The translations under genes and the position numbers were made by a program. This document shows positions 33,730 to 60,651 of a stretch of 64,000 bases of DNA, piece by piece (the stretch's first letter is position 1; every line of letters starts with the position of its first letter). The notes below the pieces were generated by a model. It was given only the letters and a program-made list of their open reading frames with translations, searched no databases and was not told where the DNA came from. The DNA is from Candidatus Aegiribacteria sp. Its GTDB lineage: Bacteria; Fermentibacterota; Fermentibacteria; Fermentibacterales; JCC-6. The stretch covers positions 12,186-76,185 of the forward strand of contig JAUVLV010000003.1 in assembly GCA_030600545.1 (NCBI GenBank). The letters run 5' to 3'.

Positions 33730-34563
33730 TCATAATGCTGCCGTCAAGCTTTCATTCAGGGGGTTTTCCAGAATGCCGGAGTATACTGTTCTTGCCTCAC
33801 CCTGAAGCCACCAGCCATGGCTGTCCTTTCCCACTTTGAGTGTTCTCCCGCTTCTTACGGTAATATTGACTGGAAGTTCCATTTCATGGATACTGACGGC
33901 ACAGATTGCCGAGGCTACCGCTCCGGTTCCGCAGGCAAGGGTTTCTCCCTCAACACCCCTTTCCCAGGTTCGCATTGAAAGTTTCGATTTACCGGTTATC
34001 CATGCGAAATCAACATTGGCACCCTCTTTTCCGAAGAGGATGTGCTTTCTGAGTTCAGGGGCTAATTCTGCAAAGGGGAGTTCTTCGGGTCCATCGAACA
34101 TGACAACAGCATGAGGGACACCTGTATTCAGAAATGACAATCGTAAACTGACAGAGTCTATATCAATGCTTCGATCGAAGTAGTGTACTTCCGGAGTAGT
34201 CATCCATAATCTGACACTGTCCTGTCCGGTTATTTCAGCTGAATGAATTCCTGCATCGCTTCTGAAATGGAAAATCCCTCTATCTGGCACGATGCCTGCT
34301 GAAGCTGCGTATCCAGCGATGCATCTTCCGCCGTTTCCACACATTTCAGCAGCTTTTCCATCATTGTTATAGAATTTCATGTGAAACGCGTATTCAGTAT
34401 CATCTTTAAGTTCCAGGAGACCATCGGCTCCTACGGATAAACCTCTTACGCACAGGCTTCGGATAAAGTCAGGGGTTATGATATCGTCAAGAGATGAATC
34501 CATGTTATCAAGAACTATGAAATCATTCCCTGCGCCACTCATTTTTACGAATTTCTGTTTCAT
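33730..34563 (-). CDS. dapF: Diaminopimelate epimerase
   Basis: MSGAGNDFIVLD, the CGNGGRC catalytic Cys region and a second Cys motif GTGAVAS are present. Confidence 0.85.
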   Translation of the reverse strand: MKQKFVKMSGAGNDFIVLDNMDSSLDDIITPDFIRSLCVRGLSVGADGLLELKDDTEYAFHMKFYNNDGKAAEMCGNGGRCIAGYAASAGIVPDRGIFHFRSDAGIHSAEITGQDSVRLWMTTPEVHYFDRSIDIDSVSLRLSFLNTGVPHAVVMFDGPEELPFAELAPELRKHILFGKEGANVDFAWITGKSKLSMRTWERGVEGETLACGTGAVASAICAVSIHEMELPVNITVRSGRTLKVGKDSHGWWLQGEARTVYSGILENPLNESLTAAL

Positions 34564-36767
34564 TCCGCTCCCCTGTCGGTAATCATCTGTAATTCTGCCG
34601 CCGCCTGAGTATTTCCTGGATCTTCTTCAAGAAGAAGCTTGTATTCGGTTTCAGCTTCCCTGAACTTCCCTTCCGAAGCGAACAGTCTTGCAAGAAGAAG
34701 CCTTAATTCAGGTCTTTCACCGCACCAGAAGGTAAATGTCTCGATGTCTTCAGCAAGATTATCGAGATCATAGCTGCCCTGAATATACAACTGAACAAGA
34801 TCGTTGAGCATCTGCTCCGTAACATTCTGCGGGCCGCCTCCGGATACACCGAGAAGAAGAGCTCCGGAAAGCATATCCGGATCATTCATCTCGATACCTT
34901 TGTCAGCAAGGTATCCCGAAGCTGCGCTGGGATCTGAGAGAAGGCTCCTGGCGGAATCGTAACCGTTGTAACAGTGCCTGTAACGATCAACGAAAAGAAA
35001 GCGTCTTGGCACAGGTTCCGCATTTTCTTCTCCCAATCTGAAAACGCGAAGAGATGAGCCCTGAAAAACAAGTGTCAATGAGTCAAGTATCTCCGGATTG
35101 TAGTGCATCAAAAGAGCTACAGCATCGCCGGGCACTTCCTCAAGGCCTGCCAGATACAAAAGGCCTGAAAAGCTGTCATCCAGAAGAAAATCAGCCTGAT
35201 ATACAACAAGTTCGCATTCTTTTTCTCTCATGAATGCTGTAAGACTGTCCTCCGGCATGAACATGGTTCGTGCGAATCTGACGATGTTTCTTCTGTTGCT
35301 TCTGTTTTCAAAGAATGTATGCGTAACGACGGGTCGGTTCGAATAAGCGGAAACGAGTCCGGAAATATGCCAGAAACTGAGCACGGCCTCATCGGTATCG
35401 GTTTCTCTTTGCATCCAATGCAGAAATGAATCGAGTTCGCTGTCGTTAAGTAATGATGATGTATTCCTGTACTGAAGACCGGTTTTCGATACTATCTCAG
35501 CAACATTCCCGGGGAAAACCGACTGCAGAAGTATTAACGCAACAGCTGGGATGAAAAACCATGTTTTGCGGAGTGATAGTGTAATTACCGGGATAAGCGC
35601 GATTGCCAGAAGTACAAGAAGCCTGTCAAAGAAGAGGTAACCTGCCAGTGAAAGAAACAGGAACCAGAATATCAGTCTGCCTTTCTTCTCCCTGAAAAAT
35701 GCTGGCATTCCCGGCAATGTAACAGCAAGAGGAATACCGAAAATAAGCAGGAACTGCGCAGGTGTAGGGCTGGTGTATCCGGGAACCCAGAACAGCCTTG
35801 CGTCACTGGAAAGCAGTGATGGATCGGAAGGATGTGAGAACATGAAACGGATCTTCGCTGTAATCACTGCTGCAACATGTCCGCTGGAACCGGATCCCGC
35901 GAGTGTTGAAAGAAAAGCTAGAAGAGTTCCGCCGATCGGTATCCAGACGCTTTTGAAGCGTGGAAGAACAAGAAGTATGGCCATTACTGTTGATGGGCTT
36001 AGAATTGCTCCGTCATGCCTCATATGGGAAAGAAAAACTGCGGCTGCAATCTGTGCGGAAGCAAATGATATCCGGAGAGAAAAAGGGACATCACCCTTTC
36101 TGTAATTTCTCCAGAAAAGGTAAAGAAGAAGAAAAAATACGATGAAGGCGGATACTTTCCATGCCGCAAGGGTAAGAAATAGAACCAATCCTGCGAAGAT
36201 TGATGCAGTGAGTGTTTGCCTGTCAGTTGTTCCTTCCTTCTGATTGTCTGACAGAGTTTTTTCGGTAAGCCAGGCAAGTGTAATCAGAAGCGGAAGCGCA
36301 ACCGTTTCTCTGTAGAATGATTCCCCTCTTGCTCTTAAAAGCGCTGGAAACAGAAACGCGTAAATGGATGAGCCCACCAGAGCGAATCGAAGGCTGTAAT
36401 CGGCAGAACGCATCCACAGGTATAGCGCAGGAATTGTGAGAAGAGGGAAAAGAAAACAGAAGTATTTAATGAAGTCATCAAAATCTCCACCAATTATACT
36501 GTGAATACTTCCGGCCAGATATTCCTCAAAAATGGAATTTTCGGATGTATTCATACCTTCAGGATGCATCACAAGAGTATCGATGTGCGGGATGCTGAGC
36601 TTTTCAGATACCATTTTTGCATATCTGTAAGACTGGGTTGTTTCGGTCTGCATCCTGGCAGATGGCGGCATGACCTTTTCCGCAAACCACGTTCTAAAAA
36701 GGAAACCTGCAGCAATTGCTGCAAGTAAAGCTGAAATGACCAGCATTTTCTTAATTCCATTGGTCAT
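34560..36767 (-). CDS. Large polytopic membrane protein with C-terminal TPR repeats (GT-C/ArnT-PMT-like architecture)
   Basis: About 500 aa with many TM helices, followed by a soluble TPR region (LLARLFASEGKFREAETEYKLLLEEDPGNTQAAAELQ). Confidence 0.55.
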   Translation of the reverse strand: MTNGIKKMLVISALLAAIAAGFLFRTWFAEKVMPPSARMQTETTQSYRYAKMVSEKLSIPHIDTLVMHPEGMNTSENSIFEEYLAGSIHSIIGGDFDDFIKYFCFLFPLLTIPALYLWMRSADYSLRFALVGSSIYAFLFPALLRARGESFYRETVALPLLITLAWLTEKTLSDNQKEGTTDRQTLTASIFAGLVLFLTLAAWKVSAFIVFFLLLYLFWRNYRKGDVPFSLRISFASAQIAAAVFLSHMRHDGAILSPSTVMAILLVLPRFKSVWIPIGGTLLAFLSTLAGSGSSGHVAAVITAKIRFMFSHPSDPSLLSSDARLFWVPGYTSPTPAQFLLIFGIPLAVTLPGMPAFFREKKGRLIFWFLFLSLAGYLFFDRLLVLLAIALIPVITLSLRKTWFFIPAVALILLQSVFPGNVAEIVSKTGLQYRNTSSLLNDSELDSFLHWMQRETDTDEAVLSFWHISGLVSAYSNRPVVTHTFFENRSNRRNIVRFARTMFMPEDSLTAFMREKECELVVYQADFLLDDSFSGLLYLAGLEEVPGDAVALLMHYNPEILDSLTLVFQGSSLRVFRLGEENAEPVPRRFLFVDRYRHCYNGYDSARSLLSDPSAASGYLADKGIEMNDPDMLSGALLLGVSGGGPQNVTEQMLNDLVQLYIQGSYDLDNLAEDIETFTFWCGERPELRLLLARLFASEGKFREAETEYKLLLEEDPGNTQAAAELQMITDRGAE

Positions 36768-36812: not shown

Positions 36813-37394
36813 TCAGGACAGGAGGCCAGAATGTTGCTTTGCTATTATGGTTGACATCAGCTTCAGTGTTTCCAGAGGGCCTGAACCTCCAATGGCAACA
36901 GATTCTATATTTGGCCATTCGTACCGATTCAGAAGCATCGCCATGTGTTCAGCAGTTGCGATCGAAGGAAGATCGCGCTTGTTGAACTGCAGTACGGTCG
37001 GGATTGCTGAAAGCTCCAGTCCGTAAGATTCAAGGTTGTTCTCGAGATCTTCGATACTGTCAAGATTCGCATCCATGCGTTCAGTCTGGCTGTCTGCTAC
37101 AAATACGAGCCCATCAACCCCGTCGAGTATCACCCTCCTGCTGAGAGAATAATAGGCCTGTCCGGGAACCGAATAGAGGTGAAGTCTTACTCTGTCATTC
37201 CCGATTGAGGCAAAATTAACTGGAAGAAAGTCAAAGAAGACCGTTCGCTCACCCCTGGTGCAGAGTGTTACAAGTCTCCCGCGGTGTTCGGGTCCGATGA
37301 TGTCTCTGATTCTTCTAAGGTTAGTGGTTTTTCCTGAAAGACCAGGTCCGTAGTACACGATTTTATACGCTACCTCATTGACAGATCGATGCAT
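36813..37394 (-). CDS. mglA: MglA-family Ras-like small GTPase (paralog 1)
   Basis: P-loop KIVYYGPGLSGKTTNL, the intrinsic Arg finger context ERTVFFDFLP, switch II LYSVPGQ (the MglA-specific T/SVPGQ in place of DxxGQ), and NKRD are all present. Confidence 0.8.
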   Translation of the reverse strand: MHRSVNEVAYKIVYYGPGLSGKTTNLRRIRDIIGPEHRGRLVTLCTRGERTVFFDFLPVNFASIGNDRVRLHLYSVPGQAYYSLSRRVILDGVDGLVFVADSQTERMDANLDSIEDLENNLESYGLELSAIPTVLQFNKRDLPSIATAEHMAMLLNRYEWPNIESVAIGGSGPLETLKLMSTIIAKQHSGLLS

Positions 37395-43294: not shown

Positions 43295-45474
43295 CTGGGA
43301 CACCAGATACCTTTCTTCTTTTCTATCAGTATTGGAAAACCACACCTGGGACAGGTTTTATCAATCGGCTTGTTCCATACTGCGTATTCACATTCGGGAT
43401 ACCTGTTGCAGGCATAAAAAAGCCTTCCCCGGCGTGATTTCTTTTCAACCAGTTCTCCGGTGCATCCTTCCGCAGGGCACGGAACCCCCGTTGGTACAGG
43501 TTCTGTATGCTTGCACTTCGGATGATTTTCGCAGCTTAGGTATCTCCCGAACCTGCCTTTCTTGAGCAAAAGGCTGCCACCGCATTCCGGGCACTTCCTG
43601 CCGAAGTATTCTGTTGAACTATCTTTTTCAAGGGGGCTGGAATACCTGCATTTTGGAAAAGCGGTGCAGGCTTTGAATTTTCCATATCTGCCCCATCGAA
43701 TGACAAGAGGGGAACCGCATTCAGGACATGTTTCCTCGGTATCTTCCTGCAGTTCATTCCTGAATTTGTTTGTACTTTCCAGCGCATTTTTCAGAGAGGA
43801 TTCAAGAGGAAGACTCAGCTGGTCCAGAACGTTGAGATAAGATTCATCGCCCTTTGCTATCGAATCGAGGAGGTCTTCCATTCTTGCCGTGAAATCCACC
43901 TGGAATATATGGGGAAACATCTTTATCAGTATTCGTACGGTTGTTGTTCCCAGTTCGGTTGGCCTGAGTGTTTTTCCGTCCTTTTCTACGTATTCTCTTC
44001 TTCTGAGTGTTTTTATTGTACTAACGTATGTTGAAGGTCTTCCAATACCTACTTTTTTCATCTCCGCGACAAGCCTTGCCTCGGAAAATCTGGGAGGTGG
44101 AGATGTGAACTTCTGTTCTTTGTTGAATGATTGTGGTGAAACCTTACCTTTTTCCACTTCAGGAAGCCTGTTCTTTGTTTTAATGAATGCCGGATCAATT
44201 ATCGAAAAACCTTGTTTGAGCAGTACTTCCCCGGTGGATAAGAATTCAAGACCTGCCCCCGATACGATGACAGTCGTATTCATTATTTCAGCATCCATGA
44301 GCTGTGTAGCCGCGAATCGATTCCAGATGAGCCTGTAAAGAGAAAGCTCGGGAGCATTGAGAACAGATTTGAGTTTATCTGGCGTAAGCTGAATATCGAC
44401 AGGCCTTATGGCTTCATGAGCATCCTGCGAACCCTTTGAACTTCTGTACCTTCTGATTTTCGCGTACAGCATATCCGAGCCGTATCTTTCAGTCAGATAT
44501 TCCCTGCAGCTTTTCAGACTGTCCGGACTCATCCTTACAGAATCCGTACGCATGTATGTAATGAGCCCTTTTCTTGTGCTTTTGCCGAAGGATATTCCTT
44601 CGTACAGTTTCTGAGCAAGTGACATGGTTCTTGATGGAGAGAATGACAATTTGCTGGAGGCGGTCTGCTGAAGTGTACTTGTAATAAAAGGAGGAGGAGG
44701 ATTCACAGACTTTTTTCTGGAATCTACTTTTGATATCTCCCAGATGATACCTGGTTCGTTAATTCTTTCAATGATAATCTCTGCTTCTTCTTCGCAACCT
44801 GGATACTTCCCGGGTTTTCCAGCTGTTTTTCCATCTATTTTATGAAGATTCGCTGTAAACGAGTTTGTCCCCTGTTCAAAAGCTGCGTCAATCAGCCAGT
44901 ATTCAACCGGCACAAAACTGCTGATAGTATCCTCGCGCTCCTGGATAATCCTGAGAGCTACAGTTTGCACTCTTCCAGCGCTTTTGCCTTTCCCCATTAT
45001 CTTCTGGAGCCAAGACGAAATCCTGTAACCCACAAGCCGATCCATAACCCTTCTTGCCTGCTGAGCGTCAACAAGCTGCATATCGATTGAACTGGGGTTT
45101 TTAAGGGATTTAAGAACAGTATCTTTCGTGATTGCGTTGAATCTGAGCCTGCTGAATACAACGTCCTTTCTTTTCAGTATCTGTGACAGGTGCCAGCAGA
45201 TTGCCTCTCCCTCTCTGTCAGGATCAGCTGCAAGATAGATAATGGAGACCCCCCTGGCTTTCTTTTTCAGAAGGGTTACAATTTTTCTTTTTTCCGGAAG
45301 TATCGCATAGGTAGGTTTGAAACCGTTACTTTCATCAACTCCAAGGTAGCTCGCTGGAAGATCCCTGACATGACCGTACGAAGCGATCACTTCATAACTA
45401 TCTCCAAGATAGCTGCGAAGGCTGCTGGCCTTTGCAGGTGATTCAATGATTACAAGTTTTTTTTTCTTACTCAT
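43270..45474 (-). CDS. topA: DNA topoisomerase I
   Basis: TOPRIM VIIESPAKA, GHVRDLP, and C-terminal tandem Cys4 zinc ribbons are present. 734 aa. Confidence 0.9.
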   Translation of the reverse strand: MSKKKKLVIIESPAKASSLRSYLGDSYEVIASYGHVRDLPASYLGVDESNGFKPTYAILPEKRKIVTLLKKKARGVSIIYLAADPDREGEAICWHLSQILKRKDVVFSRLRFNAITKDTVLKSLKNPSSIDMQLVDAQQARRVMDRLVGYRISSWLQKIMGKGKSAGRVQTVALRIIQEREDTISSFVPVEYWLIDAAFEQGTNSFTANLHKIDGKTAGKPGKYPGCEEEAEIIIERINEPGIIWEISKVDSRKKSVNPPPPFITSTLQQTASSKLSFSPSRTMSLAQKLYEGISFGKSTRKGLITYMRTDSVRMSPDSLKSCREYLTERYGSDMLYAKIRRYRSSKGSQDAHEAIRPVDIQLTPDKLKSVLNAPELSLYRLIWNRFAATQLMDAEIMNTTVIVSGAGLEFLSTGEVLLKQGFSIIDPAFIKTKNRLPEVEKGKVSPQSFNKEQKFTSPPPRFSEARLVAEMKKVGIGRPSTYVSTIKTLRRREYVEKDGKTLRPTELGTTTVRILIKMFPHIFQVDFTARMEDLLDSIAKGDESYLNVLDQLSLPLESSLKNALESTNKFRNELQEDTEETCPECGSPLVIRWGRYGKFKACTAFPKCRYSSPLEKDSSTEYFGRKCPECGGSLLLKKGRFGRYLSCENHPKCKHTEPVPTGVPCPAEGCTGELVEKKSRRGRLFYACNRYPECEYAVWNKPIDKTCPRCGFPILIEKKKGIWCPRCRKKIVN

Positions 45475-45543
45475 ATATCTTTCATTATTACAAATCCCGG
45501 ATAAGTAATACTTTATTGGAAATTATTCTGAAAGAGTGCATGA

Positions 45544-47022
45544 TCAGTTCAAATCTGTCATCCATTCGAATATTCTGCCAGTGATCAGTTCTGTAGTTTC
45601 AGGTATTATCGCCTGTTTTCTCTGCAGGAAGTATGGACTGCTGGATCCTGAAAGAATACTGAAACTGTCAGCAGTAAACGAAAATAAAGTTGCCTCGTAA
45701 TACTGGTTTTCTCTGTAGTACAGAACCATCTGGTCAACCATTGTCGAATCGAGAAGCATACCCAGATTCCCCAGAAGAGCCGTTCTTTTTTCAGCAGGTT
45801 CAGGATGCAGTATGGACATAAGAAGAATGTCGAAACCGTCATCAGTAGTAATCAGTGAAAAACCGTCGAACTCTATTGAATAAATCGCAGCAAGTTGACC
45901 CAGTGGCTCTGAAAGGAACTGCATGGAGTCGGTCTGTATTTCTATGCCAGGACCGGGTGATATTGTCAGTGTTCTTGGCAGTGAATATTCTTCGGGTGTT
46001 CCCAGTGAATCTGGTACCGAAACATCTCTCAGGGATATGTACCCATTAACCTCCAGAGAATCTACAGGAGCAACGGTTGTATCAGTTACTGCCACCGAAT
46101 CGGAAAGCAGCGAATCAGCTTCATGAATAACCACGGTATCGGCATATACGATTTCCGAACTTTCCAGTCTGTCATCTGATGAAAGGAAAAAATTCATCGG
46201 ATCAATAATAACGAAAGCTATTACCATAAGAATCAGAACGATTATGACAGCAGGCAATGGAGATATTTTTGAGAATATCCCTGATCTATTTATACTGGTT
46301 TTTCTTTTTGGATATGAACTTTTCGTCTCATCACGACTGCTTTCTTCGTGATTGCTTTTTCTGATCTCAGGTACCGAGTCAAGAGGCTTGTCAACCATTC
46401 TTCCCTCAGAGGCGCACTTCTCACATACGTGGTATTTCCTGTTGAAACACTCTGAACACGTAAGTTTTTCGCAAGTTCGACATGGAATAAGCTTCTGATC
46501 ACCGATTGGTGTTCTTCCACAGATGTGGCATCTTTCAACCGAGATCATCTCTTCTGCAGCGGATGTGATTATGAGAGAATCATCATCATCATCATCAAAA
46601 TGTTTATGAGTATAATCCTCATCTTTTACAGAGCTCTGATCATGATAGACATCACCGATATCTTCATTTTTCTTTTCCTCTATTGCGGGAATATCATCTG
46701 TAATCATTTCGTAGGGTGATTCTTCAGATTTGCTCTCTTCAACAGCGGGATTGGTCTTGTTGTTGCCGTAGTGTCTTGGGAGAAGGTCTACAAATGGGTA
46801 CATTCTGTCCTGGAGAATTCTGGCTTGCTCCATCTCAACACCCTCACTGAGAATGCTGGGAGAATTTTCAACGTTTTTACTGGCTTCTTCGCTTGACATT
46901 CCCAGTTCGCTCATGAGCAGTTCTTTTACCTTTTTCTTCTCTTCTTCCCTGGTAAGTCTGACAAGAAGAAGATCAACAAGCCTGCTTTGATCCAATTCAG
47001 CCTCGCTTTTCATCAAGAGCAA
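45544..47022 (-). CDS. Bitopic membrane protein with a cytoplasmic acidic region and a 4xCxxC zinc ribbon, and a ~210-aa periplasmic domain
   Basis: CHICG...CRTCEKLTCSEC...CEKC gives four CxxC pairs. Upstream is a poly-Asp tract (DDDDDD). One TM helix (AVIIVLILMVIAFVII). Its start overlaps the mglA-2 3' end by 26 nt. Confidence 0.5.
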   Translation of the reverse strand: MLLMKSEAELDQSRLVDLLLVRLTREEEKKKVKELLMSELGMSSEEASKNVENSPSILSEGVEMEQARILQDRMYPFVDLLPRHYGNNKTNPAVEESKSEESPYEMITDDIPAIEEKKNEDIGDVYHDQSSVKDEDYTHKHFDDDDDDSLIITSAAEEMISVERCHICGRTPIGDQKLIPCRTCEKLTCSECFNRKYHVCEKCASEGRMVDKPLDSVPEIRKSNHEESSRDETKSSYPKRKTSINRSGIFSKISPLPAVIIVLILMVIAFVIIDPMNFFLSSDDRLESSEIVYADTVVIHEADSLLSDSVAVTDTTVAPVDSLEVNGYISLRDVSVPDSLGTPEEYSLPRTLTISPGPGIEIQTDSMQFLSEPLGQLAAIYSIEFDGFSLITTDDGFDILLMSILHPEPAEKRTALLGNLGMLLDSTMVDQMVLYYRENQYYEATLFSFTADSFSILSGSSSPYFLQRKQAIIPETTELITGRIFEWMTDLN

Positions 47023-47605
47023 GAGAGAACTGTCTATGCAGTCTGCGCATTACAATACGGTTTGCTTTTCTGAGAGTTTCAAAAACACCTGTACCATCTG
47101 TTGCAACCGATTCGATACATGGGACCCTCTCGAGACCAAGGCGTTTTTTTATTACACTTGTGGGAAGAATATCCGGAAGGTCTCTTTTGTTTGTCTGGAG
47201 TACGAGGCTGAGACCCCTTCGCTTCGTATTTTTAAGGTTATCCTTCAGATCTCGCAGGCTTGCTATGTTCGCGTCCATCCTGGTTCTTTGTGAGTCGGCA
47301 ACGAAAATGATACCATCAACGCCCTGAAGAATCAGCTGACGGCTGTCTGTGTACATCGCCTGTCCGGGTACGCTGTAAAGGTGAATCCTTACCTTGAAAC
47401 CGTAAATCGTACCTGTGTTAATGGGAAGAAAGTCAAAAAACAGAGTACGTTCATTTCCTGTCGCGAGAGAAATCAACTTCCCTCGATCATTGGATGGTAT
47501 CTGACTGTGAATAAACTTGACATTGGTTGTTTTCCCGGAAAGCCCGGGACCGGCATATACAAGTTTACAATCGATTTCTCTTGAACTGTAGCTAACTGTT
47601 GCCAT
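46997..47605 (-). CDS. mglA: MglA-family Ras-like small GTPase (paralog 2)
   Basis: KLVYAGPGLSGKTTNV, ERTLFFDFLP, HLYSVPGQ, NKRD. The N-terminus MATVSYSSREIDCK closely parallels Myxococcus MglA (MSFINYSSREINCK). Confidence 0.8.
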   Translation of the reverse strand: MATVSYSSREIDCKLVYAGPGLSGKTTNVKFIHSQIPSNDRGKLISLATGNERTLFFDFLPINTGTIYGFKVRIHLYSVPGQAMYTDSRQLILQGVDGIIFVADSQRTRMDANIASLRDLKDNLKNTKRRGLSLVLQTNKRDLPDILPTSVIKKRLGLERVPCIESVATDGTGVFETLRKANRIVMRRLHRQFSLALDEKRG

Positions 47606-47816
47606 TCGTATTATCCCCGTTTCCAGAATCTTCTTCGTCGTTCTCCGTGTCCGGAAATTCCTCTTTCATTCCTTTTCTGAACATATGGAGCGCTTGCCCC
47701 ACCGACCTGGCAAGATCCGGAATTCTTTTTGCTCCGAAAAGAAGTAGAAGAACAACAACTATCAGTACAATTTCACCGGTCCCTGGACGAAACATCATAA
47801 TATCTCCTGCCTGCAA
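47592..47816 (-). CDS. tatA: Sec-independent (Tat) translocase subunit TatA/E
   Basis: MFRPGTGEIVLIVVVLLLLFGAKRIPDLARSVGQALHMFRKGMKEE is a TM helix followed by an amphipathic helix with the F-G-x-K-(R/K) hinge motif, then an acidic tail. Confidence 0.75.
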   Translation of the reverse strand: MQAGDIMMFRPGTGEIVLIVVVLLLLFGAKRIPDLARSVGQALHMFRKGMKEEFPDTENDEEDSGNGDNTNGNS

Positions 47817-47824
47817 ATCCTGTA

Positions 47825-48097
47825 TCAGAACCAGCGGTAAAGATAACCTACAAACATCAGTCCCGCAAAACTCATGAGATTCAGCTTGAAAGCAATCTCT
47901 TCAAGGGCGAACCTGAATACGATCAAATCAAATCCTATCGGACCCACTGAAAACTCAAGGGATCCAGCGAAAAACGATTTGAGTGTCGTAGAGGACTCAG
48001 GGAGTATAACTGCTATTGCTTCGCCAAACACGGTGCCTGTCATCATTCCCAGGAATGAGATGGTGATCCAGAATCCGGTCGAGCGATTGTGAAGCAA
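47825..48097 (-). CDS. Small hypothetical membrane protein
   Basis: 90 aa with two hydrophobic segments, co-directional with the tatA-mglA block. Confidence 0.3.
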   Translation of the reverse strand: MLHNRSTGFWITISFLGMMTGTVFGEAIAVILPESSTTLKSFFAGSLEFSVGPIGFDLIVFRFALEEIAFKLNLMSFAGLMFVGYLYRWF

Positions 48098-48118
48098 ACT
48101 TACTCCATTAATTATAAT

Positions 48119-48661
48119 CTATTCTGGCGTACACGCCGAATCAACCCCCGGATCATAGATCCAGGGAAAACCTCTTCTTAATAGTACAATAGCAACAATA
48201 CCGGTAATGGTTCCAGAAAGGAAACCCCATATTGTAAGTGGGAGTAAAAGACTATTCATAGGAAGTCCCGGAAGAAGTGCAGATGCAGTCAACAGCTGAA
48301 TTGAGAGACTGGAAAGACTACCGGAAATGGACATCCCCGTAACTGAGAAATACCTTTTTACCAATCCCATTACCGCTGCTGACGCAATTCCCCCTGAAAT
48401 GGAAAGAAGGTACGTTGGAGTTGCAAGTGTTCCAATGAATAGAGCTGCGCCGGTAGATCTCAGTATATTTACTCTCAGACCTGTCCAAAAACCGTATTTT
48501 GCTATTGCCGCAACCGTTATGACATTAGCCAGACCCAGTTTGATGAAAGGCAGAGGTCTGGGAATGAGATTCTCTATAACACCAGCCCCAATTGCGAGTA
48601 CAACGAGAAGGACTTCAATTCTGACGCGATCACCACAGTATTCTTCAGTTGATTTCCACAT
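48119..48661 (-). CDS. Polytopic membrane protein (Gx-transporter / HepS-component-I-like)
   Basis: Four to five TM helices, Gly/Ala-rich (LVVLAIGAGVIENL...GLANVITVAAIAKYG). The start is set at the internal ATG, and the 5' end is uncertain. Confidence 0.4.
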   Translation of the reverse strand: MWKSTEEYCGDRVRIEVLLVVLAIGAGVIENLIPRPLPFIKLGLANVITVAAIAKYGFWTGLRVNILRSTGAALFIGTLATPTYLLSISGGIASAAVMGLVKRYFSVTGMSISGSLSSLSIQLLTASALLPGLPMNSLLLPLTIWGFLSGTITGIVAIVLLRRGFPWIYDPGVDSACTPE

Positions 48662-49730
48662 TTGCTGCTTCTTCAAGAAGAGATTCAACCCTGGAAAATA
48701 GCCGTTTGGCGTTGAAGTGATGTTCCGCCCTTTCCAGCGCTCCGAAGGAGAGTCTGGAATGCATTTGTGGATCATCCATCTTCTTCACTGCCTCTGCTAT
48801 GGCGATGGAATCACCAGGTGGAATAATCAGACCCGATACATTATCGGAGTTTACCCAGGGAACTCCGGTTGGAAGCGCTGTACTTATCACAGGAATACCG
48901 CAGGCCATTGCTTCGGTCTGAACCATGCCGAATGCTTCGCTCCGCATTGTTGATGGCAGAATAAGACACCTGGCCTGCTGATAGAGTTCTACAAGCTTTC
49001 GATCATCCGGGTTGCTGACAATCTCTATATTAAGGCTATCTTCACGGATCTTATTACGCACATTGTTCTCCAGAGGGCCTCCCCCCACCATAACAAGCTT
49101 TCTCCGGGGGAATTCCTTCCATGCATCGAGCAGTACGCCGATACCCTTGTACTTTCGAAATCTTCCTACAAATAATACGTAATCACCCTCAGTGTCTACA
49201 TCTGGCGGCCTGAACACATCGAGATCTGAACCGATAGGAACAACTTCAGTATTATCAAGATCTGACAGATAGATGGAAGTATCAAGATAAACAGGAGAAG
49301 TGGCTATTACCTTGCTGGCACCTTTTAAAAACCTTCTCAGCAGCGGGCCGTAGAAAGGAAGAAAGAACGCCTGTCTGACTATATCGCTATGGTATGTTAC
49401 AATGTAGGGAGTGTTCCTTCCGGAAAGGAGCCATGCAATTACAGCAGATGGCAGAGGAACATGAAAGTGCAGTATGTCGGCAGGAGTATTTTGCAGTATA
49501 CTGCGAAGTCCAGGGGATATTGGATTTGAAAGAATTCTGCATATACAGGGGTATTCAATGACATTGAATCCTGAAACCACAGTTTTAGAGCCTCCCCTGG
49601 CATTACCCGCCACAAGAACACTAACTTCATGCCCCTTGCCGGCGAGGTACCTGGAAAGATCGTGCAAGTACCTTTCAATTCCACCCCGCACTAATGGATG
49701 GACATCCTTGTAAACCTGAAGGATTCTCAC
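48645..49730 (-). CDS. Glycosyltransferase family 4
   Basis: MRILQVY...GGIERY and the C-terminal EAFGMVQTEAMACGIPVI (the E-x7-E region) are present. An ATGA overlap links it to the upstream GT4. Confidence 0.8.
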   Translation of the reverse strand: MRILQVYKDVHPLVRGGIERYLHDLSRYLAGKGHEVSVLVAGNARGGSKTVVSGFNVIEYPCICRILSNPISPGLRSILQNTPADILHFHVPLPSAVIAWLLSGRNTPYIVTYHSDIVRQAFFLPFYGPLLRRFLKGASKVIATSPVYLDTSIYLSDLDNTEVVPIGSDLDVFRPPDVDTEGDYVLFVGRFRKYKGIGVLLDAWKEFPRRKLVMVGGGPLENNVRNKIREDSLNIEIVSNPDDRKLVELYQQARCLILPSTMRSEAFGMVQTEAMACGIPVISTALPTGVPWVNSDNVSGLIIPPGDSIAIAEAVKKMDDPQMHSRLSFGALERAEHHFNAKRLFSRVESLLEEAANVEIN

Positions 49731-55585: not shown

Positions 55586-56812
55586 TTATCGCTTATGACT
55601 TCTGATGAATTCCTCTACTTCAGGAATACCGCCCTGCAATATCAAATAACCGTTATGGGGTTCTCTTTCCGTGATCTCACCAGCTATCGGAGTAAGCATT
55701 ATCTTTTTAACCTCTTCCCTGTCATGGCTCTGACCAAGTGCCCAGCATAATTTCATGTATGCAACTTCCGGAAGCATATTGGAAGCTGGAATTACACCAA
55801 GATCCATGATATCCCGCCCTGTATCGTATACGAACATCTGTACATATCCCCACAGGGTTTGAACCGTCATGTAAACATGTACTCCCTGATCGCAGGCTTT
55901 CTTAAGGACAGGATAGAGAGGCTTGTTCACATGTCCAAGCCCCGTTCCCGCGATTATGATACCCTTGTAACCGTTATCAATAAGCGATTCAATAATATCA
56001 GGTTTCATATCAGGATAGTAATACACTATTGAAACACTTGAATCGAAAGCAGTATTGATTTTCACATGACGGTCTGTCCGTCTTTTCCTGTAATCGGTTT
56101 TCAATGGTGTTATATGTCCTTTTTCAACCATAGCCAGGGGTATGTCTCCTATTGTGCGGAATGTGGACCTGTAGGAGGAATGCATCTTCCTGACTCTTGT
56201 TCCTCTGTGCAGAAGTCCATACTGATCACTTGTAGGACCGAACATACAGACCATTACCTCTGCAATATCGCTCTCAGCGGCTGCATAGGTGGCATTCATC
56301 AGATTTATTGCCGCATCGCTTGAAGGGCGGTCACTGGATCGTTGTGATCCGACCATTACTACAGGAACAGGTGTATCCTGAACCATGAACGAAAGAACAG
56401 CTGCTGTATGATGCATCGTATCGGTCCCATGGCCAATGACTATTCCATCTACACCATCGGCTATTGCCCTGCCGATTGCCTCCGCTGTTCCTTTCCATTG
56501 TTCAGGCCCCATGTTTTCACTGAAAACTCCGTAGAGCTTCTCCGTTTTAAGGTTGCAGATATCCGCCAGTTCGGGTACCGATCCATAGAGCTCACCAGGG
56601 GAAAATGCGGGAATGACAGCGCCCGTTCTGTAATCAAGCCTCGAGGCAATGGTGCCCCCTGTTCCGAAAAGTCTCACATTCGGTTTTGATGGATCGTACG
56701 GAAATTCCTTTTCAGGGATCTTGTAATGGGCTTCGTTCCTTCCCAGCTCAGCGATGGACTCAATAGTTCCAACATCCAGGCCTACATTGTAGCCGTTATG
56801 GATTTTCAACAC
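55586..56812 (-). CDS. gatD: Glutamyl-tRNA(Gln) amidotransferase subunit D (archaeal-type; asparaginase-fold with ~90-aa N-terminal extension)
   Basis: Asparaginase motifs FGTGGTIAS and GHGTDTM are present. The 408-aa length includes the GatD-specific N-terminal domain. It is immediately downstream of a gatE-like gene. Confidence 0.75.
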   Translation of the reverse strand: MLKIHNGYNVGLDVGTIESIAELGRNEAHYKIPEKEFPYDPSKPNVRLFGTGGTIASRLDYRTGAVIPAFSPGELYGSVPELADICNLKTEKLYGVFSENMGPEQWKGTAEAIGRAIADGVDGIVIGHGTDTMHHTAAVLSFMVQDTPVPVVMVGSQRSSDRPSSDAAINLMNATYAAAESDIAEVMVCMFGPTSDQYGLLHRGTRVRKMHSSYRSTFRTIGDIPLAMVEKGHITPLKTDYRKRRTDRHVKINTAFDSSVSIVYYYPDMKPDIIESLIDNGYKGIIIAGTGLGHVNKPLYPVLKKACDQGVHVYMTVQTLWGYVQMFVYDTGRDIMDLGVIPASNMLPEVAYMKLCWALGQSHDREEVKKIMLTPIAGEITEREPHNGYLILQGGIPEVEEFIRSHKR

Positions 56813-56977: not shown

Positions 56978-58906
56978 TCACCTCCTCTGTATTTGCCGTG
57001 ACGAGGAATCAGCAAATTCGGTAAAAATTGTGTTTCTCACTACTTCCAGCACTTCTCTGCCGCCCGGCATCCCCTTGAACCTGTCCTTTATGCGCCCTAT
57101 GAGAAAGCGTTCCATAAGACCGGTGTCGAAAGGATCAAGTATTTCCATTATTCTGACGGCCGTGTCTTCTATATCTTTTCTGTCGGGTATCGTTAAATCA
57201 GTTATAACCGATTCGATTTCCGCATTCCCGTTTCCGCAGGTTTTCTCCAGAATATAGGCTGCGGCTTCAACGGGAAGATTGCGCCTGCTGGCCGCTGACA
57301 GTACTTCGATAAGTGTTTCATCAGGGATCTCACTTACATTGCCGCTGTTCTTCAGATGGTTTAGTGTGCTAAGAAAAAAATGCATGAGAATGCGTGGAGA
57401 GTACAGGCATTTCTTCACAGCCTCATCGTATACGAATCTCATGTAAGAAATACTCATCTGACGGGCAGATTCTGCAGGTACTCCCACAGTTATATATCTC
57501 TCCATCCGTTCCCAGGGTCTTTCGGGAAGGTCCGATTCGATACGTTCGATCATTTTTTCGGTTATGGCTATTGGCTGCAGGTCGGTATCAGGATACATCC
57601 TGTTTGGTCCGGGCAGAATTCTTTCGAATCCGTTTGTTCCATCAGAATATGATTGTCTTGTTTCACTGCAGACGCCGTAGATAGCTTCCCTTGCTCTTGT
57701 TGCGATTTCACCCGTCGCCATATCGAGGTCTTCTACCGATCCCCATACGACAACGACGGCATCACCCGTTTCAGCACCAGTTTTCTTTTTTACTGTCTCC
57801 CATTCGCTAACCGAGAAACTGTATCCTTCCTCTCCATCGTTTACGATATTGGGAAGGGTATCAAGACATGCAATAACGCGGACTCTGTCGGAGATCTCCC
57901 CGGCGAAAGTACAGCCGGGCTGTGTAACTGTAGAAAGCAATCCTACGTATCCCCGCAGTAGAACAGCTCTAAGCTCAAAGCCCTTCTTCAGAGCGGCTGC
58001 AGCAGGGCTGTAGACAGTTCCTGAGAGTTCATCGGTAACATCAAAACATTCGGAACTGAACGTTGAATCCGTAATACCCCTTCTGGACAGTTCTTTTTTG
58101 ATCTCCAGAAGAAACACCTGGCGGAAAGCCTCGTTGTGAACAAGCAGCGGTATCGCTGGAATCCTTGAAACACCCTTAATCTCAACGCGGCATCCCCCCG
58201 TTACAGAAACGTTCACATCCTGCCTTGCGGCGCCAATTCCACGTCTTACTTTACCAGAAGCTCTAACAAGATCGCTTAGTATCCGGGCAACCTCAGCCAC
58301 ATCGCGTGGAGTAGTCATTTCCGGAGCCGTTACAGTCTCAATAAGCGGTATTCCAAGCCTGTCCGTCAGGTAGACGCGTTCATGGCCTGTATCGCTTACT
58401 TCCCGGCAGGCATCTTCTTCCAGTCCAAGCTGAATAATATTTATACGCCTGTTTTTAAATGGGATCCAGCCGTCAACTCCCAGTATTGTCGTTCTCTGAA
58501 AACCTGCAGGTATTGATCCATCGAGGTACTGCTTCCTCTGAATATGAATCTCACTAACGAGTTTGCAGTTAAGAAGCATCGTTATCTCAAGTGCGATATC
58601 AAGAGCCTGTGGATTCAATTCGAAGGGAGGAGTATCATCGATTTCGTAAGTACAAATGGTATCTTTGTTTATCTGGTATGTGATGTTCTTTTTAGTTTTG
58701 AACTCCATAAGAGCTGTGCCGTCGTATTCACCGAGTTCTGAAAGAGTAGGTCTCATATGACGAAGTATCTGTGCATCGTATTCGTCAGAGTAAGGAAGTA
58801 CCGGGCAGCGACAGAACAATTTTTTCCTGGTATCGATCTGCTGGTGTATCTCAAGTCCGCTGCGCAGTCCGATAGCTTCGTAATCGGAGGTTGTCATCTC
58901 CTCCAT
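56978..58906 (-). CDS. gatE: Glutamyl-tRNA(Gln) amidotransferase subunit E (archaeal-type)
   Basis: YEAIGLRSGLEIHQQIDTRKKLFCRC, RPTLSELG, ICTYEIDDTPPFELNPQALDIA, DRLGIPLIETVTAP and RQDVNVSVTGGCRVEIKGV match GatE (GatB-like catalytic core plus insertion). The ~640-aa size fits GatE, not the ~480-aa bacterial GatB. Confidence 0.75.
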   Translation of the reverse strand: MEEMTTSDYEAIGLRSGLEIHQQIDTRKKLFCRCPVLPYSDEYDAQILRHMRPTLSELGEYDGTALMEFKTKKNITYQINKDTICTYEIDDTPPFELNPQALDIALEITMLLNCKLVSEIHIQRKQYLDGSIPAGFQRTTILGVDGWIPFKNRRINIIQLGLEEDACREVSDTGHERVYLTDRLGIPLIETVTAPEMTTPRDVAEVARILSDLVRASGKVRRGIGAARQDVNVSVTGGCRVEIKGVSRIPAIPLLVHNEAFRQVFLLEIKKELSRRGITDSTFSSECFDVTDELSGTVYSPAAAALKKGFELRAVLLRGYVGLLSTVTQPGCTFAGEISDRVRVIACLDTLPNIVNDGEEGYSFSVSEWETVKKKTGAETGDAVVVVWGSVEDLDMATGEIATRAREAIYGVCSETRQSYSDGTNGFERILPGPNRMYPDTDLQPIAITEKMIERIESDLPERPWERMERYITVGVPAESARQMSISYMRFVYDEAVKKCLYSPRILMHFFLSTLNHLKNSGNVSEIPDETLIEVLSAASRRNLPVEAAAYILEKTCGNGNAEIESVITDLTIPDRKDIEDTAVRIMEILDPFDTGLMERFLIGRIKDRFKGMPGGREVLEVVRNTIFTEFADSSSRQIQRR

Positions 58907-59184
58907 TCTTTTTATCAAGTTGAGACAACTCTCCTTCCAGTATACTTTATTCATACTCAGTTTCCAGAGATTCATTGAGTATAAAGTGAGATCAGATTTC
59001 GCAAGAACAGCGTTTAATTATATTTCATGGGATTCCACAAAACAACGGTTACTGCCTGGCCGCCTCCACGAGAATCCGTCTGACCGACTTGTTACCGCAT
59101 CGGGTGATACTGCCGCGCATCAGATAATCAGAAAAATCCCTTTTATCCGCTGTTAGGCGAAGGTGAAACATTGTTACCTTACTT

Positions 59185-59877
59185 CTATTTCATCAGGATC
59201 AGTTTCTTTGTTGCCCGATAATTACCTATGTTCAGTCGATAGAAGTAAATACCTGAATTAATTTCTTTCGAATTCCAGACAACTTCATAATCACCAGCAA
59301 CCTTGTAATCATTAACAAGAGTTTCAACCAATTGACCACTTATGTTATAAATTTGTATTTCCACATTACATGTTCTAGATATAGAATAACTGATTGTAGT
59401 TGCCGAGCTGAATGGGTTTGGATAATTTTGATATAATCTAAAAGAATTTGTTGTAACATCAGAATAATCCTCTTCAATTCCGGTCATGTGTTCAAAGTAA
59501 AAAGCTCCCATATCAGCAACTGTGCTATCAGGGTCAAGGGAAGAAGCAGGATCACCTGCATCTATACAAGGCGATTTTGTGCTATCAGGTACTGGGAAAT
59601 TAGCCCAAGTTAGATAAAAATCACCGATTACAGGATCTACAAATAGTGGATCTTCATCAATACAACCTGTACCGAACCAAGGCTGGCCTGTTCCTCCTTC
59701 TATATCTGAATAGCTGGCTGTCAATGTTTGAGCCCCTGAATATGCTATAGTTGGAGGGGTATCATGCCAGAGGATATCATTAAACACATTTGCCTGAGCT
59801 CCGCTCTGGTCAAAATAGAAGTAGATTCCTCCGCCTTCAGAAGCTGAATTGCTATAGAATGTATTGTTAAATATATT
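59185..59877 (-). CDS. C-terminal part of a secreted protein carrying a T9SS C-terminal sorting domain (same frame as the upstream beta-helix ORF)
   Basis: The last ~80 aa (YPNPFSSATTISYSISRTCNVEIQIYNISGQLVETL...GIYFYRL) match the Por secretion C-terminal domain. Confidence 0.6.
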   Translation of the reverse strand, partial: NIFNNTFYSNSASEGGGIYFYFDQSGAQANVFNDILWHDTPPTIAYSGAQTLTASYSDIEGGTGQPWFGTGCIDEDPLFVDPVIGDFYLTWANFPVPDSTKSPCIDAGDPASSLDPDSTVADMGAFYFEHMTGIEEDYSDVTTNSFRLYQNYPNPFSSATTISYSISRTCNVEIQIYNISGQLVETLVNDYKVAGDYEVVWNSKEINSGIYFYRLNIGNYRATKKLILMK

Positions 59878-60651
59878 TTAATTTCCTGTTGTAGTTGATA
59901 TACATAATCCGCCTCCAGATTCAGCAGAGGATTCGTTTTCATTAAAAACATTATGGTCTATTGTTGCAGTTCCATTATCAAGAAATATATTTGCACCACC
60001 TCCAGTTTGGACTGAAGTATTTATAGTAAATCTATTGTTCTGAATATTCAGTGTACCTCCGCCATGTTCTATCCACAAACCTCCTCCTTGCCATACTGAG
60101 CTATTCCCAATATAAGTATTATCCAATAAATCTATCGTGCCCGATGTAATTTGTATGTAGGTTCCTCCTCCACTACCAGCCACTACTGATGAATTCCCTG
60201 TTAAAGTGTTGTGTCTGTACTCTACTATAGCATTACCAGCAGGGCACCTGATCCAGCAACCACCTCCAAATTCATCTGCTATATTATCGTTGAAAGTACT
60301 GTTTTCAACTACAACGGTAGAACCATCGCCCATTGGATAGAGCATTGCTCCTGCACCATCCCTTTCTGCTGTATTTTCAATAAAAGTACATTCTATAACT
60401 CTTATCTCGGTCCCTGCTCCTTCTGTCTGGACAAACAAGCCTCCTGCAGTACCATAAGGGTACCCCGATGAATTTGGGGATGAATTTCTTCTGAACATAC
60501 AGTTATTAATTGTGATATTTCCTGTTATTGAATATATGTTTACACCACCACAAACATAACCTGCTGTGTTGTCATCAATGGTACAGTTATTAAGACTTAT
60601 ATCCGCATCTTGTGTCTCTATATATAATCCTCTCTCCATAGTCTGCTTCAA
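59878..60651 (-). CDS. Right-handed parallel beta-helix repeat protein (N-terminal part, ends at an in-frame TAA)
   Basis: Repeated ~22-aa N-x-x-x-N/GGG motifs (NNCTIDDN, NITINNCMF, VIECTFIENTA, VVENSTFNDN, IQNNRFTINTS). There is no signal peptide at the annotated start, so the gene is probably 5'-truncated or frameshifted upstream. Confidence 0.5.
   Translation of the reverse strand: MKQTMERGLYIETQDADISLNNCTIDDNTAGYVCGGVNIYSITGNITINNCMFRRNSSPNSSGYPYGTAGGLFVQTEGAGTEIRVIECTFIENTAERDGAGAMLYPMGDGSTVVVENSTFNDNIADEFGGGCWIRCPAGNAIVEYRHNTLTGNSSVVAGSGGGTYIQITSGTIDLLDNTYIGNSSVWQGGGLWIEHGGGTLNIQNNRFTINTSVQTGGGANIFLDNGTATIDHNVFNENESSAESGGGLCISTTTGN

Follow-up and report, generated by a model that had tools for sequence, protein, structure and literature searches.

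MglA is the model for front-rear polarity that is set and switched by a Ras-like GTPase in bacteria. Nearly everything known about it comes from Myxococcus, where its regulator is the Roadblock protein MglB. Among 449 MglA-family genes, 390 were found coupled to mglB and 59 were orphans, the latter including SofG of M. xanthus and the MglA of Bdellovibrio (PMC4316618). M. xanthus also provides a membrane-bound partner, the bitopic protein GltJ: MglA-GTP binds to its cytoplasmic linker, and MglB to its zinc finger (Attia et al. 2024, PMC11135422). In translation, bL12 (L7/L12) uses its C-terminal domain (CTD) as a module for binding to the G domains of IF2, EF-Tu, EF-G, and RF3, and these translational GTPases engage it through the G4-G5 helix, helix D of EF-Tu (PMC6753160, PMC3505967). 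Here we examine a locus from a Candidatus Aegiribacteria genome, phylum Fermentibacterota, in which an mglA gene (mglA1) is followed by a gene for a bitopic membrane protein, hereafter the partner. The organisms of this group are rod-shaped diderms without flagella that have type IV pili (PMC5030696). The locus lies in a 64-kb stretch of DNA, which we call the window, and all coordinates are positions within it. We consider it best explained as a Fermentibacterota-specific two-gene module, MglA1 plus a translationally coupled bitopic inner-membrane protein, set inside a long co-directional array.

The mglA1 gene (46997..47605, minus strand; ATG at 47605, TGA ending at 46997) encodes a 202-aa small GTPase of the group-1 MglA type. 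It consists of a single Ras-like G domain, and a phmmer search of the PDB matched it over residues 1–190 to characterized MglA proteins (T. thermophilus MglA, 3t12, E=6e-63; M. xanthus MglA, 6hjh, E=1e-58). Its sequence shows the features that Wuichet and Sogaard-Andersen (2015, PMC4316618) set out for group 1: the P-loop GPGLSGKTT with Gly21, the intrinsic Arg53-Thr54 within NERTLFFDF, SVPGQ with Gln82, and NKRD. R53 and T54 are invariant in 19 aligned MglA1 sequences, and the motif is the same in the consensus of 56 orthologs. SVPGQ differs from the TVPGQ form of the G3 motif, in which a hydroxyl residue takes the place of the otherwise universal Asp, by the conservative exchange of Thr78 for Ser, which is fixed in both MglA paralogs of the phylum. 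The catalytic residues Gly21, Arg53, and Gln82 are thus all present. A prediction made earlier from the DNA letters alone (the original prediction) had recognized this gene as an mglA by its SVPGQ motif and intrinsic Arg, which we confirm. It had also called the N-terminus nearly identical to that of Myxococcus MglA; direct reading gives 19 identities among the first 28 residues, so the two are similar only. MglA1 orthologs share at least 71% identity within the Fermentibacterota and at most 58% outside it, and they carry a lineage-specific signature in helix alpha4, I152...L156-G157. An mglB within four genes, which is typical of group 1 without defining it, is missing here.

The partner gene (45544..46995, minus strand, as measured from its conserved start) lies immediately downstream. 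The original prediction had described a 492-aa protein whose gene overlaps mglA1 by 26 nt, which corresponds to the longest open reading frame (ORF), beginning at TTG 47022; starts at ATG 47013 and TTG 46995 would give 489 and 483 aa. In distant relatives the partner ATG shares 1 nt with the mglA stop, and in the window's own clade the sole universally conserved start is a non-ATG codon 1 nt past the mglA stop. In the window, TTG 46995 is preceded by GAGG at a spacing of 5 nt and ATG 47013 has no Shine-Dalgarno sequence; in the relatives L068 and L069, gene callers place the start at the equivalent of TTG 46995. Because the start conserved across relatives is at the position of TTG 46995, with its GAGG, the 26-nt overlap is doubtful. 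It probably arises from choosing the longest ORF; the two genes are nevertheless tightly coupled, and the 14-nt overlap between the upstream tatA gene and mglA1 stands.

We surveyed conservation using one genome per GTDB species, which yielded 61 loci identified through the membrane protein, all from Fermentibacterota. The order DUF4321-like gene, tatA, mglA1, partner is kept in 58 of them, down to 31% identity of the partner. The three exceptions are L022, which lacks mglA1, and L051 and L052, whose contigs end inside the membrane-protein gene. Both loci found by starting from MglA1 showed the same tatA-mglA1-partner order. From mglA stop to partner start, all but two of the 58 loci show a distance of -8 to +1 nt, and nearly all fall within -4 to +1 nt; in L024 and L029 the two are 85 nt apart and do not abut. 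The tatA/mglA junction spans -14 to +7 nt across all relatives. The survey supports the view that mglA1 and the membrane-protein gene, next to which mglB is missing, are a genuine unit that the lineage has conserved.

The absence of a local mglB, which had been proposed from the window's ORFs, held in wider searches. No Roadblock (Robl_LC7) domain was found by Pfam in the genes neighboring mglA1 (within four genes), and hidden Markov model and phmmer searches for MglB, run on every six-frame ORF of the window and the 61 syntenic loci (1.3 Mb), came back empty. Outside the phylum, the closest MglA homologs (56–58% identity) have mglB directly upstream, so the uncoupled local state in Fermentibacterota is derived. 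A database search with a WOR-3-type MglB returned no Fermentibacteria-named protein among the named hits of the best 120 homologs listed, most of which are unnamed; the named ones, among the matches listed, came from WOR-3, Cloacimonadota, Zixibacteria, TA06, and similar groups, and the search is uninformative on whether Fermentibacterota lack mglB.

The window holds a second, more derived MglA paralog that the original prediction had overlooked. The mglA2 gene (36813..37394, minus strand, 193 aa) lies 10 kb from mglA1, downstream of hslVU, again with no adjacent mglB, and is syntenic in every sufficiently long locus. Its product matches Pfam Arf, has the motifs ERT, SVPGQ, and NKRD, and is 49% identical to MglA1. 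Mean identity to M. xanthus MglA is 52.6% for MglA1 orthologs and 47.5% for MglA2 orthologs, and where the two paralogs can be told apart by residue, MglA1 has mostly kept the ancestral one. Judged by sequence, MglA1 is the more canonical paralog. The gene after mglA2 (34560-36767, minus strand), syntenic in the sufficiently long loci, encodes a 735-aa polytopic protein with weak matches to GT-C families (Dpy19/STT3) and a C-terminal tetratricopeptide repeat (TPR) region; it looks like a GT-C glycosyltransferase, with the TPR region probably periplasmic, and for that reason we set aside the idea that MglA2 and this protein make a second pair of GTPase and membrane partner.

We modeled the partner with AlphaFold2 on 42 homologs, numbering residues from ATG 47013. 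Its N-terminal residues 12–80 (46774..46980, minus strand) form a beta-alpha-alpha-beta-alpha-beta module resembling the bL12 CTD, predicted with high local confidence (predicted local distance difference test, pLDDT, 85–96); the original prediction had passed over this domain. In a Foldseek comparison with the PDB, the domain matched 1ctf with a template-modeling score of 0.70, a root-mean-square deviation (rmsd) of 2.6 Å, 23% identity, and probability 0.99. Sequence searches pointed the same way: 24 of the 42 members of the family match Pfam Ribosomal_L12 (PF00542), the best at E=1.8e-5, and all seven PDB matches of the domain profile are bL12 (E 0.09–0.4). The window's own protein, taken alone, scores above E=1 with Ribosomal_L12. 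By predicted fold and by sequence, the domain is a homolog of the bL12 CTD. It is not a stalk protein: nothing precedes it at the extreme N-terminus of the ~485-aa membrane protein, and the part that dimerizes and binds bL10 is missing.

Similar domains occur in another setting. Two uncharacterized proteins in the representative library (P0138, 1056 aa; P0153, 692 aa) consist mostly of at least five tandem bL12-CTD-like repeats (KIxVIKxVRxxxGLGLKEAKDLVESAP...), and non-ribosomal bL12-CTD domains therefore exist elsewhere.

The remainder of the cytoplasmic region comprises a linker and a zinc finger. Residues 84–157 (46543..46764, minus strand) make up an acidic linker predicted to be disordered (pLDDT <50), with a net charge of -18 and a D6 tract; its length and sequence vary among relatives and its acidity is constant. 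Residues 161–200 (46414..46533, minus strand; RCHICGRTP...PCRTC...TCxxC...HVCxKC) contain eight Cys in four CxxC pairs; these, and with them R161, H163, G166, T168, P169, and H195, do not vary among 42 sequences. Pfam gave weak FYVE, RING, or B-box matches in 20 of 42 members, the best FYVE match (E 0.0068) falling below the cut-off. A model of this domain alone (pLDDT 83) matched FYVE and PHD fingers with probabilities up to 0.98 and E 0.03–0.8, among them rabphilin, a Rab3A effector. Thus, while the acidic, poly-Asp character and the four CxxC pairs noted in the original prediction are borne out, the model indicates that the Cys-rich region is one predicted two-zinc cross-brace finger of the FYVE/PHD-like type and not several zinc ribbons. 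The signatures by which FYVE domains bind phosphatidylinositol 3-phosphate (WxxD, R(R/K)HHCR, RVC) are not those of this finger, which reads ERCHICGRTP...PCRTC...HVCEKC and has neither WxxD nor RRHHCR. The best PDB sequence match of the finger profile was the zinc-binding ribosomal protein bL28 (2jz6, E=0.004), aligned over both outer CxxC knuckles; we set this kinship aside as a weak short-motif resemblance, the fold search favoring FYVE/PHD.

A separate family in the representative library (P0140-P0157) shares only the eight-Cys module (RCHxCG...CPxCGxFTCxxC...CxxC), placed after two N-terminal zinc ribbons. Beyond the module, its members show by eye helical, TerB-like, and TPR-like regions, with repeated segments in some.

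As foreseen in the original prediction, the protein crosses the membrane once. Residues 253–270 (46204..46257, minus strand) are the sole Kyte-Doolittle peak and are helical in the model, and 219 residues follow, close to the ~210 proposed. Because a K/R-rich segment precedes the transmembrane helix, the N-terminus would be inside and the C-terminus outside. After a disordered spacer rich in D, S, and T comes a confidently modeled alpha/beta domain (residues 330–489; 45547..46026, minus strand; pLDDT 92–98) predicted to be periplasmic, in which the family alignment shows an ILHPE motif and invariant H403, R410, and Y433. It had no matches in Pfam or NCBIfam and no convincing match among solved structures, Foldseek returning from the PDB only weak, high-rmsd hits to Rai1, MGME1, and Cas4 (probability 0.3–0.66). 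Its alpha-beta-beta-alpha-beta-beta order raised the idea of a Roadblock-like domain, which we rejected because there is no Roadblock match and because the domain would sit on the wrong membrane face. For the protein as a whole, the Roadblock-like fold that had been proposed as a check did not emerge: PF03259 was found in none of 42 members, and the 50 best PDB matches listed by Foldseek include no Roadblock structure. We also rejected a zinc-binding anti-sigma factor, given the lack of an HxxxCxxC motif and of a sigma factor gene among the neighbors.

The family to which the partner belongs has at least 139 homologs, all unnamed or "hypothetical", with named sources in Candidatus Aegiribacteria, Sabulitectum, and Fermentibacteraceae. 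When 1.84e9 representative proteins were searched exhaustively with a profile, no more than about 16 clusters matched over the full length, and the architecture is therefore confined to Fermentibacterota, a restriction that had escaped the original prediction.

One Fermentibacterota lineage, represented by three independent assemblies (L022, L066, and L067), is without mglA1 and thereby offers a view of the partner on its own. Here tatA is followed, after 124 nt, by an intact partner gene (region 9604-11581 of L022). The bL12-like domain of this lineage is the most divergent in the family, with 46% identity to the consensus as compared with 59–85% elsewhere. When the distance of the N-domain was regressed on that of the C-domain, the lineage had a residual of +0.156, the next-highest being 0.075 (standard deviation (sd) 0.071), and Tyr72 of the bL12-like domain, otherwise invariant, is Ser. 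The zinc finger and the periplasmic domain are unremarkable. MglA2 of the same lineage is also altered: judged by TopA, HslU, and the TMEM260-like protein, its identity falls 10.4 points short of expectation (sd 1.25), and it has 13 changes at columns conserved in at least 90% of MglA2 sequences, as against at most three in the 42 others.

Some of these changes have a direction. At 23 positions that discriminate MglA1 from MglA2, the MglA2 of the deleted lineage has gained three MglA1 residues; such residues are absent from 41 of the 42 other MglA2 proteins. I152 and G157, two of those gained, are derived states specific to MglA1 and located in alpha4 and its C-terminal turn, between G4 and G5. 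I and G are at least 90% conserved at these positions in MglA1 orthologs, and M and N are equally conserved in the 42 other MglA2 proteins; among 49 outgroup MglAs, I occurs at 152 in four and G at 157 in one. Helix alpha4 of MglA is the homolog of helix D of EF-Tu, the G4-G5 helix. The elements that changed in the deleted lineage are those predicted to be in contact if the bL12-like domain docks on MglA alpha4.

Given this architecture and these correlated changes, we infer that the membrane protein is an MglA1-binding partner, as effector, recruiter, or regulator, that docks through its bL12-like domain; we regard the chances of this as about even. MglA1 would dock on the cytoplasmic part of the membrane protein, with the N-terminal bL12-CTD-like domain contacting helix alpha4 of its G domain. 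The acidic linker and the FYVE/PHD-like finger could supply further surfaces for regulation or partner binding, and the transmembrane helix and periplasmic domain would connect the state of the GTPase to an envelope structure. In this way MglA1, with no MglB gene beside its own, may be regulated or recruited by the membrane protein. A bolder version, in which a bL12-descended domain was recruited to the inner membrane, binds MglA alpha4, and functionally replaces MglB, would make the pair a transmembrane GTPase switch with no described counterpart; we hold that to be improbable.

Several observations weigh against docking. The factor-binding basic residues of bL12, which we take to be K65, K70, R73, K81, and K84 from the E. 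coli sequence, are not conserved in the bL12-like domain, and its helix 1 is mixed in E and K. The mglA1-deleted lineage is a single case and establishes no more than a change in MglA2 following the loss of mglA1; the convergent MglA2 residues would show that it took over some MglA1-specific role, which need not be partner binding. Because the membrane protein persists intact in that lineage, the pairing of MglA1 and partner is not obligatory. Moreover, MglA1 fully keeps the residues that contact MglB, L55, F56, F57, and F59 (contacts per PMC3199381), as would suit an MglB whose gene lies elsewhere in the genome. As for gene order, an array of ~20 kb is syntenic as a whole across the phylum, equally with tatA-mglA1-partner, and reads in all loci GT-GT-Gx-DUF4321-tatA-mglA1-partner-topA-xer(C)-TMEM260-like-hslVU-mglA2-GT-C/TPR (GT, glycosyltransferase). 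Tight or overlapping junctions also join unrelated genes in it, such as xer and the TMEM260-like gene. With synteny this extensive, gene order counts for little by itself, and the conserved order that we found in answer to the original prediction's call for a survey must be read in that light.

The same facts, namely the synteny of the entire array, the overlap of unrelated genes, the intact partner where mglA1 is deleted, and the conserved MglB-contact residues (PMC3199381), are what would be expected if the two genes were only operon neighbors, co-transcribed members of a housekeeping array whose products do not interact physically, the membrane protein having its own role in the envelope and MglA1 finding its partners elsewhere, possibly a distant MglB or RomR/X-type regulators. 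We consider this possible, if somewhat unlikely. It does not account for why the lineage without mglA1 accelerates specifically the bL12-like domain and MglA2, the latter converging on the alpha4 signature of MglA1. A domain of a GTPase-docking type adjoining a GTPase gene would be an unlikely coincidence, and the mglA/partner junction belongs to the tightest class, preserved to 31% partner identity. Another possibility is that the membrane protein itself serves as the GTPase-activating protein (GAP) or guanine nucleotide exchange factor of MglA1, its bL12-like domain stimulating hydrolysis so that no Roadblock MglB is needed. That no mglB lies in the 64-kb window or the 61 syntenic loci, that the nearest outgroup MglAs carry mglB directly upstream, and that MglA1, with Gly21, Arg53, and Gln82 in place, should cycle and need a GAP all speak for it. 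So does the implication of the bL12 CTD in both recruitment and activation of translational GTPases (PMC6753160, PMC3299993) and, weakly, the lack of a Fermentibacteria name among the named hits of the best 120 WOR-3-type MglB homologs listed, most of them unnamed. However, MglB clamps the switch/beta2 face and alpha4 is on another face, so that contact there would not obviously position Arg53 and Gln82 (PMC3199381). No catalytic-residue argument favors the idea, no obvious pattern marks the partner as dispensable for either paralog, and an mglB may lie outside the window and the 61 loci that the search covered. On balance we think such an activity unlikely.

The original prediction had also proposed that a polarity GTPase is coupled here to a component of the twin-arginine translocation (Tat) system. 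The tatA gene (47592..47798, minus strand; likely start ATG 47798 with AGGAG ahead, stop overlapping the mglA1 start by 14 nt) is a genuine TatA/E family member, scoring 58.1 bits with TIGR01411 (cut-off 53.9) and 58.4 bits with Pfam TatA_B_E (PF02416; cut-off 21, E=4e-16) and containing the LLLFGAKRIP motif. One could imagine that the membrane protein works with TatA, in assembly, substrate quality control, or localization, and that mglA1 was inserted between them: tatA directly precedes the pair in every locus, it still precedes the membrane-protein gene where mglA1 is deleted, and both products are single-pass membrane proteins. But the partner has no domain with a known Tat connection, there is no tatC in the neighborhood (none among the proteins scanned), the tatA junction is no stronger than those of other neighbors, and the correlated changes in MglA2 would go unexplained. 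We therefore judge a Tat-linked function very unlikely; tatA is most likely a merely co-transcribed neighbor, and beyond adjacency, in an array where the whole 20 kb is syntenic and unrelated genes overlap, nothing connects it to the GTPase. Of the module reaching across the membrane that the original prediction envisaged, what survives is the conserved mglA/partner unit and a protein that spans the membrane, without the TatA part. An interacting pair of MglA1 and membrane protein remains the reading we favor.

The surroundings of the pair are themselves orderly. ORF reading of the window shows tatA, mglA1, and the membrane-protein gene on the minus strand with neighbors overlapping or abutting, and together with a DUF4321-like gene they make four closely spaced genes (47825-48097, 47592-47798, 46997-47605, and the ~485-aa protein with its stop at 45544). 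The DUF4321-like gene (47825..48097, minus strand), directly upstream of tatA, encodes a small membrane protein of 90 aa whose Pfam match to DUF4321 (E=0.027) is below the cut-off; the protein of relative L068 matches weakly as well, and the gene is syntenic across all loci. From about 27500 to 60700, over >30 kb, nearly all genes of the window lie on the minus strand, overlapping or separated by little, in an array conserved phylum-wide. So long a conserved co-directional array limits functional inference from gene order. Scanning 45300-48900 for promoters and terminators gave counts at or below shuffle expectation and was uninformative on operon boundaries. In one locus, L058 (Ca. Sabulitectum silens JCC-6), the mglA1, topA, xer, TMEM260-like, hslU, and TPR genes are each split into several tblastn pieces, which points to a frameshift-rich, low-quality assembly and not to biology.

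Elsewhere in the window, a 408-aa asparaginase-domain protein (55586-56812, minus strand) stands beside a 665-aa GatB_N-domain protein (56978-58975, minus strand), in which the Pfam match covers residues 40–477 for a 277-position model, implying a large insertion. The two look like an archaeal-type GatD/GatE Glu-tRNA(Gln) amidotransferase in a bacterium. Of two further adjacent genes (59185-59787 and 59878-60651, both minus strand), one encodes a C-terminal sorting domain of type IX secretion (Por_Secre_tail, E=2.5e-12), which suggests that the organism has a type IX secretion system, and the other a Chlamydia-PMP-type repeat.

The locus provides a whole phylum in which a canonical MglA has no adjacent MglB and is joined instead to a membrane-spanning protein. 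If the proposed interaction is true, it would be a second, independent coupling of a small GTPase to the cell envelope, and recognition of G domains by the bL12 CTD would extend beyond translation; if it is not, this is an ordinary orphan mglA within a highly syntenic operon. Candidate residues for the interaction are I152 and G157 of MglA1 and Y72, R65, and Q68 of the partner. Literature searches, none naming it specifically, surfaced nothing on a Fermentibacterota MglA or on the membrane-protein family. Apparently new are a family of partners limited to one phylum, the combination in it of a bL12-like with a FYVE/PHD-like domain, and the fixed way in which it is coupled to a canonical MglA. 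Orphan MglAs (59 of 449; PMC4316618) and a link between MglA and a membrane zinc-finger protein (GltJ; PMC11135422) were already known, so that to call the arrangement undescribed, as had been done, was an overstatement.

Comparison with described systems places the pair more precisely. Its bL12-like domain has the fold of the ribosomal bL12 CTD and detectable sequence homology to it, and its proposed GTPase target would be the homologous helix, alpha4 (PMC6753160). Unlike ribosomal bL12, it has no N-terminal part for dimerization and bL10 binding and has not retained the conserved basic factor-binding residues. It is tethered to the membrane and not to the ribosome, and its putative client is a Ras-like small GTPase and not a translational one. 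Rabphilin-3A in complex with Rab3A (1zbd) offers a two-zinc cross-brace finger in a small-GTPase-associated protein, comparable with the finger predicted here, and 1zbd_B was among the fold matches; the structural resemblance to such Rab effectors is weak (E 0.26), and WxxD and R(R/K)HHCR are absent here.

MglA1 resembles known orphan MglAs in being a group-1-type protein, with the intrinsic Arg and xVPGQ, that has no mglB within four genes. Bdellovibrio MglA has a P-loop substitution that makes the GTPase independent of a GAP; MglA1, unlike it, keeps Gly21, Arg53, and Gln82. Also unlike the known orphans, Fermentibacterota have two orphan paralogs per genome, the canonical one with a conserved, translationally coupled membrane partner.

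GltJ, of the Agl-Glt focal-adhesion machinery, comes nearest to that partner. Both cases combine a group-1 MglA with a bitopic inner-membrane protein that has a zinc finger and a flexible linker in a long N-terminal cytoplasmic region, one transmembrane helix, and a periplasmic domain. The parts differ: GltJ has a single-zinc, four-Cys ZnR and a GYF domain and is without a bL12-like domain, whereas the protein described here has a predicted eight-Cys FYVE/PHD-like cross-brace, and no GYF family was among the Pfam hits of 42 members, so that its layout is not the ZnR-linker-GYF of GltJ. Nor is gltJ adjacent to mglA, and M. xanthus has MglB. By sequence we found no homology between the two membrane proteins, and the exhaustive profile search gave no homolog outside Fermentibacterota. 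By analogy, then, the MglA-GltJ pair of M. xanthus would be the closest functional precedent, one built from non-homologous domains: GltJ links the state of its GTPase to an envelope-spanning machine, and we propose that the Fermentibacterota protein may provide a link of the same kind.

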